A stretch of 64,000 nt of DNA, from IMG/VR virus record IMGVR_UViG_3300045988_155334. The stretch is one strand, 5' to 3'. Below are positions 29,148 to 31,616 of this stretch, in pieces. Below the pieces are notes generated by a model. The model was not told where the DNA came from. It was given only the letters and a program-made list of their open reading frames with translations, and did not search any database. Origin of the DNA: a virus. Its lineage: Duplodnaviria; Heunggongvirae; Uroviricota; Caudoviricetes. Made by a program: the position numbers and the translations under genes. The stretch's first letter is position 1, and each line of letters begins with the position of its first letter.

Positions 29148-31408
29148 AAGAGCTGTGCTATGGATCTGTTTGCAGTGGAATTGAAGCCGCGAGTATTGCC
29201 TGGGAACCGTTGGGTATGCGTCCGGCGTGGTTTGCTGAAATCGAGTCTTTTCCATCTGCCGTTCTTGCGCACCGCTGGCCCCATGTCGCGAACCTTGGCG
29301 ACATGACAAAACTCGCCCAAAAAGTCCAGACCGGAGAAATTGAAGCCCCTGATGTGCTCGTCGGGGGTACGCCTTGTCAGGCATTCAGTATCGCGGGCTT
29401 ACGTGGTGGGCTTGATGATGAACGCGGCGCGCTAACTTTGAAGTATGTGGAGCTTGCAAATGCAATTGACGACAAACGGTCTGAGTCCTTCCTCAAACCG
29501 ACAGTTATCGTCTGGGAAAATGTCCCAGGAGTCCTGTCATCAGCAGACAACGCGTTCGGATGTTTCCTTGCCGGATTGGCTGGAGAAGATGCGCCATTCG
29601 AACCTGGTGATCGACCTGAATCACGAAAAAGTAACACGTTCTGGCGGTGGGATGTCAAAACCGGTTGCCATACTCCAAAGTGGCCGCAGTGTGGTTGTAT
29701 TTATGGACCGCAGCGAAAGGTGGCCTGGAGAATCCTTGATGCCCAATACTTCGGAGTGGCACAACGACGCCGACGCGTGTTTGTTGTCGCAAGTGCTCGA
29801 ACAGACCTCGATCCCGCAACGGTACTTTTTGAGTTCGAAGGCGTGCGCCGGAATATTGCGCCGAGCCGAAAAAAGAAGGAAATCGCTTCCGCCATTACTG
29901 CAAATGGCGCTGCAATCAGTGGCGAAAGCCTAAATCCATGCCTACACGCTGGCATGTCCCCCGATATGAAATCGACGAAAGCCGTAAACGGTTTCAGGAT
30001 GGCGGCATTTGGGGAATATATTGACGATGAAACCGCATCGACAGTAAAGGCAAGAGACTTTAAAGATGCCACTGACCTTGCCGTTTTTAGCAGCACTGGA
30101 GCAGGTTTTTGGTCAGAAGGGCATGGTACATTGCGGGCGCGTGAGCAAGAAAGCCATGAGCATCTTGTTACATTGGCTTTTCCTGAGCGTATGAGTGGTA
30201 CACAACATGCAGCAACTAAGAATACTTCACCATCTCTAATGGCTCAAAATCCAACTGCTGTTTGCTATGAAGTAAGAAACGAAGAAGTAGCTGTCCGCCG
30301 TCTTACCCCTGTCGAATGTGAGAGACTTCAAGGTTTTCCTGATGGACATACGTTGATCCCTACGGAAAAGCGTAAAAAAGTTAATTCAGATGAACTGGCA
30401 TATCTGCGCAATCACTATCCAGATTTAAGCGAAGAAGAGGCCGCGATGCTTGCAGCTGACGGACCGCGTTACAAAGCGATCGGCAATAGTATGGCGATAC
30501 CAGTAATGCGCTGGATTGGCGAGCGGATTACCAAGGCTGCATGTCGGCAGAATGAAGGGCGTGAAACAAAAGAGCGAAAAGTTAAACCAGCGGCAGAATT
30601 CGAACGGTCCATATTCAAATGGGCTGGTGGAAAATTTGGTGTTCTGGAACAAATCTTTCGCTATTTGCCAGAAGGGAAGCGCCTGATCGAACCTTTTGTC
30701 GGTGGCGGAGCTGTCTTCACGAATGCCGGATACCAGGAAAATCTGCTAAATGATGTGAATGCTGACCTGATTAACTTTTACAAGACTCTGCAACGCGAGG
30801 CGCATTCACTTATCACACTGGCGCGTCGGTTTTTCCAGGACTACAACACACAGGAAGGATACCTGGCAGTACGGAATGCGTTTAACAAACAAGTCTATGA
30901 TGATTTACATCGCGCAGCGGCGTTTTTGTTCCTGAACCGACATTGTTTTAACGGATTGACGCGTTACAACCAGGCCGGTGAGTTCAATGTCGGTTATGGG
31001 AAGTATAAAACTCCGTATTTCCCATTACAGGAGATGGAAGCCTTCCTCGGTGCGGAAGGGTGTTCTGAGTTTGTATGTGGTGATTTTGCTGCGGTGATTG
31101 AAGCTGCCGGAGAAGGAGATGTCATCTTCTGTGATCCGCCGTATGAACCGCTTCCAAATACAGAGGGATTCACGAACTATTCCGGTCATGACTTTAAGTT
31201 TGAAGAGCAAAAACGCCTGGTGTCTCTGTTGACGGATGCTCATCGCCGAGGTGCAAAGGTTCTCATTACTAACAGTGGCGCGCCAAACATCAGAGAGCTT
31301 TATCATGACAATGGCTTCAGAGTGGAGCCTCTTTTTGCCAGACGTTCTGTGTCTTGTAAGGGGGACACTCGAGGTGTTGCTCATGACGTTTTAGGTATAT
31401 TGCTCTAA
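29144..31408 (+). CDS. dmt: Dmt bifunctional DNA methyltransferase (N-terminal C5-cytosine, C-terminal Dam-family N6-adenine)
   Basis: 754 aa; [35 protein letters not shown] in the N-terminal half; KWAGGK and FCDPPY in the C-terminal half; GTG start overlaps the hrdC stop. Confidence 0.9.
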
Positions 31409-31415
31409 TAAATTT
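31399..31415 (+). promoter_or_regulatory. C1 operator (perfect consensus) overlapping the dmt stop codon and a rightward promoter
   Basis: ATTGCTCTAATAAATTT; -35 TTGCTC (31401-31406), 17-bp spacer, -10 TAATAT (31424-31429). Confidence 0.65.
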
Positions 31416-31590
31416 ATTAGTGTAATATCGCCTCAATGAATCGTGATTTATAGAGCGATTTAGCTGTTAGCCGCGACAGGCGCGGCGGTAAGCATGGCTG
31501 GGCCTAGTCCTCCCAGACAAACCACCGAGTTGCCAGGTTGACCATGCGCCTAAGTGGCAACGCCGAAGTGCGTTACGAGCTTCCAGTTTG

Positions 31591-31616
31591 CCCATCTTCG
31601 GGTGGGCGTTTTTTTC
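31591..31616 (+). terminator. Intrinsic terminator/attenuator in the leader of the tRNA-tci-ban unit
   Basis: gcccatc-ttcg-ggtgggc followed by TTTTTTT. Confidence 0.6.

Follow-up and report, generated by a model that had tools for sequence, protein, structure and literature searches.

The window analysed here, a 64,000-nt stretch from a Caudoviricetes record of IMG/VR (IMGVR_UViG_3300045988_155334), encodes between the C1-controlled promoter of the ban operon and the first intrinsic terminator behind it a leader RNA that, on comparative sequence evidence, very probably belongs to a real family of conserved structured RNAs. Positions 31200-32300 share 98.9% identity with phage P1 (AF234172 / NC_005856) and 95.9% with P7, and by its sequence the window is another P1-like phage isolate. 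The operator and the promoter, already known and annotated in P1 and P7 as Op72ab/Oban and P1ban, add nothing new; the new information lies in the leader RNA, whose widely distributed and terminator-linked family appears to be undescribed, and in an adjoining gene for an RNA resembling transfer-messenger RNA (tmRNA), which likewise appears to be undescribed. That the leader promotes read-through in cis, in a manner resembling the function of the HK022 put RNAs, is a reading of these data to which we would give a little less than an even chance.

Structure and distribution of the leader RNA

The conserved element of the leader scores 101.5 bits with a covariance model (R1) and occurs as a single copy in the window. 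Pattern scans of IMG/VR contigs and genomes yielded more than 100 homologs, from Escherichia, Shigella, Salmonella, Citrobacter, Trabulsiella, Erwinia and Izhakiella, and their comparison supports the helices listed in Table 1, with a pseudoknot between the internal loop of helix P2a and the loop of helix P3. In 20 hand-picked sequences, 91.9% of the cells were paired and 13 pairs had changed on both sides (slid controls, 33-54% and 0-5 pairs), while 61 distinct sequences fitted to the model gave 96.0% and 12 pairs (slid controls, 34-54% and 0-5) and shuffles gave 0/500 for both sets, statistics that are moderately inflated by homologs mostly more than 75% identical and by a model-fitted alignment (A4). 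Examples of compensatory changes are the following: in place of GUUGUCA/UGACAAC, helix P3 has GUUGCCA/UGGCAAC in phage P1 and GUAACCA/UGGUUAC in Izhakiella; for the pseudoknot GUAUGG:CCAUAC, P1 has GCAUGG:CCAUGC; a U-A pair of P2a becomes C-G in P7; and the P2 stem carries a compensatory change specific to P1 and P7 (CUGGG / CCCAG). The unpaired stretch GGCGGUAAG and the 19-nt loop of P3 are also very strongly conserved. The minimum free energy fold of the P1 leader alone is uninformative (z = -1.1), and the structure therefore rests on the comparative evidence; a 5'-terminal hairpin predicted for the transcript is identical in P7 and hence brings no covariation of its own. No Rfam family matches the element. 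ARAGORN, with its threshold at 80%, took part of it as a "5' tRNA domain", but this suggestion of tRNA or T-loop mimicry was judged spurious, because homologs of the element occur elsewhere without a nearby tag region and tmRNA-like units occur elsewhere without the element.

DicF is among the oldest and best-studied bacterial small RNAs (sRNAs), and GenBank labels positions 68791-68892 of P1 (about 31523-31624 of the window) as "dicF-like". The Rfam model of DicF (RF00039), however, finds no match in 30800-34400 at E<=1, nor in 31420-32090 at E<=10, whereas in the Qin prophage of K-12 the same model reaches 76.7 bits at L003:3122-3173, the homology to P1 lying at L003:3001-3097. P1 thus shares with Qin the stretch of about 95 nt directly upstream of DicF and not DicF itself, so that a DicF homolog was rejected as an identity for the leader; as judged from these sequences, the label is misleading and reflects the flanking homology together with a faint resemblance at the terminator. 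When positions 31430-31625 were compared with 5426 complete E. coli genomes by sensitive BLAST, P1-type plasmids matched over the full length, and the central stretch 31471-31565 (query 42-136) was found at 75-80% identity in 4428 of the genomes, in a median of 2 places per genome, all of them unannotated. In K-12 the homologous stretch lies in Qin between ydfC and dicB and ends about 25 nt 5' of true DicF. The DicF precursor of Qin is processed by RNase E, and a review treats the stretch 5' of DicF merely as the ydfC 3' untranslated region (UTR) or as DicF precursor (PMC9438474). The structured 95-115 nt directly upstream of DicF have apparently never been described as an RNA element, in spite of their presence in most E. 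coli genomes and, free of DicF, in phage P1; the leader RNA is also unmentioned in two papers on the P1vir transcriptome. The initial annotation of this DNA, made from the letters alone, had recognised a terminated RNA unit here and had missed its kinship to the dicF locus.

Wherever the element occurs, a terminator follows it. A hairpin with a U-tract lies about 15-60 nt 3' of the element in 60 of the 60 distinct downstream contexts, most of them caught by an automatic scan, which reported none in four and a different hairpin in several, so that these were read by eye. The spacers between element and terminator are unrelated from group to group and comprise several DicF variants and, in P1, a non-DicF spacer; beyond the DicF terminator of Qin-type prophages lie dicB and recombination genes. 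In Qin, mEp460 and F1055, the open reading frames (ORFs) that separate the repressor gene from the element match solely families of unknown function and no antiterminator family, and phage pPE4 has no annotated ORF on the element strand in that interval. As a separate observation, the DicF-type terminator hairpin carries a large loop insertion in the loci L132, L145, L147, L148 and L052, from Trabulsiella, Erwinia, Izhakiella and a Salmonella-type contig. A GGAGG resembling a Shine-Dalgarno sequence is present in the insertion, and from the AUG/GUG UUC U.. behind it the sequence continues into the 3' arm; the terminator may here contain a very small ORF.

Table 1. Features of the ban leader region and its surroundings (positions in the window; helix names are those of the comparative fold).
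Feature	Position	Strand	Evidence
dmt ORF (bifunctional DNA methyltransferase), 754 aa	29144..31408	+	ORF list; GenBank P1 annotation
P2ban, predicted second promoter	31383..31414	+	offset-mapped from GenBank P1 annotation 68651-68682
C1 operator half-site Op72a / Obana, 17-mer ATTGCTCTAATAAATTT, 0 mismatches	31399..31415	+	pattern search; protein_bind in AF234172, also P7
Sigma-70 promoter P1ban: -35 TTGCTC 31400-31405, 17-bp spacer, -10 TAATAT 31423-31428	31400..31428	+	sequence; GenBank AF234172
C1 operator half-site Op72b / Obanb, ATTACACTAATAAATTT, 2 mismatches	31410..31426	-	pattern search; annotated in P1
Predicted 5'-terminal hairpin of leader transcript	31437..31462	+	RNAfold, unconstrained and constrained
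Conserved structured leader RNA element	31452..31586	+	covariance model R1, pair counts
Element outer helix (GUUGUGG / CCACAAC in homologs), weak in P1	31462-65/31578-81	+	comparative fold
Element helix P1	31471-75/31481-85	+	comparative fold
Element helix P2a	31487-89/31524-26	+	comparative fold
Element pseudoknot, P2a internal loop with P3 loop (GUAUGG / CCAUAC in homologs)	31492-97/31542-47	+	comparative fold
Element helix P2, variable hairpin enclosed by P2a	31498-502/31512-16	+	comparative fold
Element helix P3, 9 bp, invariant 19-nt loop	31527-35/31555-63	+	comparative fold
Intrinsic terminator: hairpin 31589-31608, U7 31609-31615	31589..31615	+	terminator scan, folding energy, conservation
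tmRNA-like RNA, previously unannotated, first gene reached by read-through	31618..31799	+	Rfam, ARAGORN 80%, homologs, covariation
Tag-like frame GCA AAC GAU GAU CUG AUG AUG GUA GCG GCC UAA = ANDDLMMVAA*	31677..31709	+	
tmRNA-like pseudoknot A	31723-28/31740-45 and 31735-38/31754-57	+	covariation
tmRNA-like pseudoknot B	31760-63/31773-76 and 31767-72/31789-94	+	covariation
tRNA-Asn	32081..32156	+	ARAGORN; Rfam tRNA 72-73 bits
tRNA-Thr	32159..32234	+	ARAGORN; Rfam tRNA 72-73 bits
STnc100-like unit, directly upstream of tciA	33007..33130		Rfam match 33009-33128, 39.2 bits vs gathering score 47

Operator, terminator and the RNA genes behind them

It is close to certain that the site upstream of the leader is the bipartite C1 operator Op72ab (Oban) lying over P1ban and that the leader ends in the terminator of Table 1. 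The initial annotation had described a perfect C1 operator on the dmt stop codon, supplying a TTGCTC -35 with a TAATAT -10 at 17 bp, and all of its features were located at, or within 2 nt of, where it had put them. The operator does match without mismatch and encloses the TAA stop of dmt (31406-31408), and the promoter is identical to the annotated P1ban; what had been overlooked is the inverted half-site Op72b, which overlaps Op72a by 6 bp and extends into the -10 of P1ban, just as Op72a covers both the stop codon and the -35. GenBank describes the pair in P1 as the divalent operator Obanab, which "controls expression of ban", and the P7 record carries the same operator, stated to regulate the tRNAs and downstream genes. 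Expression of ban depends on Op72. The 17-bp asymmetric C1 consensus occurs 10 times in the window when up to 3 mismatches are allowed; shuffled sequences lead one to expect 0.37, and none of 100 shuffles reached 10. Other matches with 1-2 mismatches lie at 12010, 13675, 27877, 41456 and 47222, in addition to weaker sites; the one at 27877-27893 is the annotated Odmt/Op68, upstream of uhr-hrdC-dmt. P1ban agrees with the consensus at 7 of 12 positions, a weak match because of which a generic promoter scan did not report it, and its assignment is therefore based on the GenBank annotation, together with older work on the ban operon. Transcription would start near 31435-31437, which makes the terminated leader about 180 nt long up to the U-tract rather than the roughly 170 nt first estimated.

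The strong intrinsic terminator that had been placed at 31591-31616 is indeed present. Its core, GCCCAUC-UUCG-GGUGGGC, forms a G/C-rich stem of 7-8 bp closed by a UUCG tetraloop (-12.8 kcal/mol) and is followed by U7 to 31615. The hairpin starts 3 nt past the end (31586) of the covariance-model match to the element, and about 7 nt remain unpaired between element and terminator in the P1 leader. A terminator-type pattern is by itself not rare (4 found against 1.6 expected in 1.8 kb), and this one is kept in P1, P7, SJ46 and D6. The homology of D6 to P1 begins exactly at the terminator hairpin (31587), with pmgS upstream in place of dmt (L005, 1754-2530). The 750-nt leader of D6 holds a divergent STnc100-type unit of its own (L005:2178-2299, GUUGCGG...GGGGGAGGCACCCCCGCUGCAAC). 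Another terminator-like hairpin with a U-run (GGCTTCAGAGTGGAGCC TCTTTTT) lies at 31313-31329, within the 3' end of the dmt coding sequence.

Two nucleotides past the U-tract begins the tmRNA-like unit, a gap that leaves no room for a promoter; in other phages the unit has its own promoter (TTGACA-17-TAGATT), whereas P1 has none there. The initial annotation had placed the terminator before the tRNAs, and these are indeed in the operon, but the tmRNA-like gene, which had gone unseen, comes first. Rfam tmRNA models give weak matches at 31579-31747 (E = 0.007 and 0.03), far below their gathering scores, and ARAGORN reports a tag at the 80% threshold and no tmRNA with its default settings. Counterparts of the first 180 nt or so of the unit, 71-73% identical, are found in 293 phage records; they are never annotated and mostly lie in the company of tRNA genes. 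The phages with these homologs include Ackermannviridae, Gamaleyavirus and P1-like phages, and more than 120 IMG/VR contigs carry them as well. In 129 sequences the frame has nearly always 10 codons, lacks a start codon and varies synonymously, with the consensus AN[DE][DEN]xx[LMK][MAVI][VA][AP]*; the SsrA tag of E. coli is ANDENYALAA. The unit thus displays a start-less tag frame from an alanine resume codon, a hydrophobic ..AA tail and pseudoknots downstream. Both pseudoknots lie 3' of the tag stop, and 12 of their 17 pairs have changed on both sides (91 such cells, compared with 23 in shuffles). No conserved tRNA-like domain (acceptor stem with G3-U70, T-arm and 3' CCA) emerged from a search of the homologs for a T-arm and a complement of the 5' end. 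In P1 the first 10 nt of the unit, GGGUUUUCGU (31618-27), could pair, but for a single mismatch and a single bulge, with the bases just behind a T-arm at 32284-32311; this pairing was rejected as a tRNA-like domain, being absent from other phages and involving a T-arm that sits within its own local stem. A census of tmRNAs from 2014 lists no enterobacterial phage (PMC4131195). A gene with a frame resembling a degradation tag, common to hundreds of unrelated enterobacterial phages, raises the possibility of interference with, or replacement of, the ribosome rescue of the host.

Around the two tRNA genes, positions 31799-33130 form an array of repeated RNA modules, in which linker stems (CAACAGGUAAGRG...CYCUUWCCGUUG) enclose variable inserts and two units, at 32317-32451 and 32513-32570, are closed by GUUGUGA...UCACAAC. 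All four copies of CAGGTAAGRG in the window fall within this array, and its modules recur beside the tmRNA-like unit in many prophage contigs. A tRNA-like fragment right after tRNA-Thr (32242-32317), which ARAGORN does not call, combines a hairpin (GCGACGUCGGAGAUCGC) and a T-arm (AGAGGGUUCGAAUCCCU) within a stem of 10-14 bp, and it also stands 3' of the tmRNA-like unit in other contigs (e.g., L159). The P1 ORFs plp and upl are on the opposite strand of the array and may be spurious. Farther downstream, at 33862-33937, ARAGORN reports a tRNA-Met (CAT), a label that by convention is probably incorrect, since the homologous P1 gene is annotated as trnI, a tRNA-Ile2 with a lysidine-modified CAU. 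In Qin-type prophages the DicF terminator is followed by the same sequence as forms the 5' part (GCGGUGAAUGCGGCUAAGCGCACGCGG) of the STnc100-like unit that closes the array, on account of which the P1 region looks like a Qin-type block (element, DicF, STnc100-like unit) into which about 1.4 kb of RNA genes have been inserted.

Possible roles of the leader

C1 bound in the lysogen to the two overlapping half-sites covers both the -35 and the -10 and shuts P1ban. As we picture the events upon inactivation of C1, RNA polymerase would start near 31435, and the first RNA made would be the structured element of about 135 nt, with its four helices and a pseudoknot from loop to junction. Some of the polymerases would terminate at 31609-31615 and set free a structured RNA about 180 nt long, and the remaining ones would read through into the tmRNA-like RNA, tRNA-Asn, tRNA-Thr, tciABC, tRNA-Ile and ban. 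The nascent leader would act in cis on its own polymerase and suppress the terminator, as does put RNA, which binds the zinc-binding domain of the RNA polymerase beta' subunit, and the homologous element that Qin-type prophages carry ahead of the DicF terminator would act likewise. Read-through into the tRNA-tci-ban unit had been suggested by the initial annotation, and a promoter scan agrees with it: no recognisable promoter was found between the terminator and ban, so that the downstream genes appear reachable by read-through alone.

We favour cis-antitermination, at a confidence slightly short of even, because the terminator looks strong, because the structure always precedes a terminator whatever the sequence of the latter, and because P1 has no DicF-like seed. 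A role in DicF maturation only could not explain why the structure is conserved in P1 and P7, where the element has no such seed and yet shows compensatory changes. The broader proposal, that the leader and its homologs upstream of DicF constitute a new class of factor-independent antiterminator RNAs, of about 115-135 nt, pseudoknotted, unrelated to put and riding on RNA polymerase, is more doubtful. Several points weigh against antitermination. Both the activity in cis and the ends of the transcript are things we infer from sequence, as is the strength of the terminator, and plain leakiness could suffice for the expression of ban. The element always adjoins a terminator of the sRNA type, which would be expected just as well if it were simply a 5' domain within some longer sRNA precursor; in P1 its outer helix forms poorly; and the pair counts are subject to the inflation mentioned above. 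HK022 has a put site in each of its two early operons, and the element is present in one copy per phage, no second, putR-like copy having been found in the window or in the flanks of 100 homolog loci. Neither BLAST with the element nor model R1 on the early region of HK022 revealed homology to putL or putR, and membership of the put family by homology was therefore rejected; moreover, put RNA is about 70 nt long with two stem-loops in the shape of a "V" (PMC9378689), whereas the leader is a multi-helix structure with a pseudoknot. Finally, the DicF terminator of K-12 does terminate and yields the 53-nt DicF (PMC9438474), so that any antitermination there must be partial.

The terminated transcript of about 180 nt could itself be the product, a stable RNA under C1 control, with the read-through into the operon being ordinary leakiness. 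Its pseudoknotted domain would then bind a host protein or RNA in trans, or protect an attached regulatory 3' part, as in the precursors that join the element to DicF. The repressor-controlled small RNA put forward by the initial annotation is a fair description of this terminated product, the leader being a conserved structured RNA. We place the chance of such a role well below even, and the evidence points both ways: the element is invariably joined to an sRNA-type terminator, forms part of a DicF precursor that is processed by RNase E in Qin (PMC9438474), is related to STnc100-type units listed by Rfam as sRNAs, and offers in GGCGGUAAG and the 19-nt loop of P3 conserved unpaired stretches that suggest a specific binding surface; however, P1 has no obvious seed, with only some 7 unpaired nt before the terminator, no target or partner is known, and the expression of a promoter-less tmRNA-like gene, tRNAs and ban behind a strong terminator would be left unexplained. 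A functionless leader is less probable still. The terminator would then mainly end the uhr-hrdC-dmt operon and insulate what follows, and the leader would be the remnant of a captured lambdoid dicF module, in agreement with the end of dmt 180 nt upstream and no other convincing terminator in between (the 31313 hairpin is inside the coding sequence), with the resemblance of the P1 region to a split Qin-type block and with the degraded outer helix. A mere remnant would hardly account for the differences between the P1 and P7 elements, which are compensatory and keep the pairs (C-G in P2a, C-G in the pseudoknot, and the P2 stem), nor for D6, which keeps the terminator and the downstream block without an upstream dmt and has a divergent unit of its own in its leader.

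The attenuator that the initial annotation had offered as its other option fares worst, and we regard as very unlikely a classical attenuator or riboswitch in which a ligand, a protein or the ribosome would shift the RNA between an antiterminator fold and the terminator hairpin. A conserved pseudoknotted domain directly 5' of a terminator is the typical layout of transcriptional riboswitches, but the predicted folds always retain the terminator hairpin, and spacer and terminator are unrelated among the homologs, without a conserved segment able to pair alternatively; both observations make a switch of pairing improbable. Neither a leader peptide ORF nor a match to any Rfam riboswitch was found.

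If read-through is what the leader controls, this would account for the expression of dicB and the prophage recombination genes in spite of the DicF terminator before them, and for that of ban and the RNA genes preceding it from Op72 in P1. In more than 80% of E. coli genomes, an antiterminator of this kind would determine what share of transcription gets past the terminator of DicF or of P1, and in P1 it would link the loss of C1 to the expression of a phage tmRNA-like RNA, of the tRNAs and of Ban, a helicase.

Comparison with known systems

The operator and promoter of the window do not differ from Op72ab/P1ban of P1 and P7: the place relative to the dmt stop, the 17-mer, the inverted half-site and the hexamers are the same. 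The dicF locus of Qin (ydfABC-dicF-dicB) resembles P1 in having the element in an early operon, before an intrinsic terminator that precedes further genes, whereas P1 has no DicF and its element is promoter-proximal and under C1 control. With STnc100 (RF02076) and the unit at 33007-33130 the leader shares a closing helix (GUUGYGG...CCRCAAC), a first hairpin, a G4/C4 hairpin and the motif AGGACACCGGG before the last hairpin; it differs from them by its long P3, the invariant 19-nt loop and the pseudoknot, and the Rfam model of STnc100 has no match on the element at 31452-31586. Layout and motifs are shared, in addition, with the weaker units of the array at 32317-32451 and 32513-32570.

The PR'-tR' unit of lambda, source of the 6S RNA, and StxS offer another parallel, consisting of a promoter, some 180-200 nt and a strong terminator that has to be overcome for expression of the operon. 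PR' is constitutive and is read through by means of the Q protein, whereas P1ban is under the control of a repressor and the ban operon has no known Q-like factor. The terminated by-product of a PR'-tR' type unit can be a regulatory RNA (PMC7547250). The likeness that we propose to HK022 put lies in a nascent structured RNA of an early phage operon, upstream of terminators and without an N-like protein nearby (PMC9378689). If this likeness of function holds, the leader would provide a second, structurally different example beside the single known family of factor-independent antiterminator RNAs in phages.

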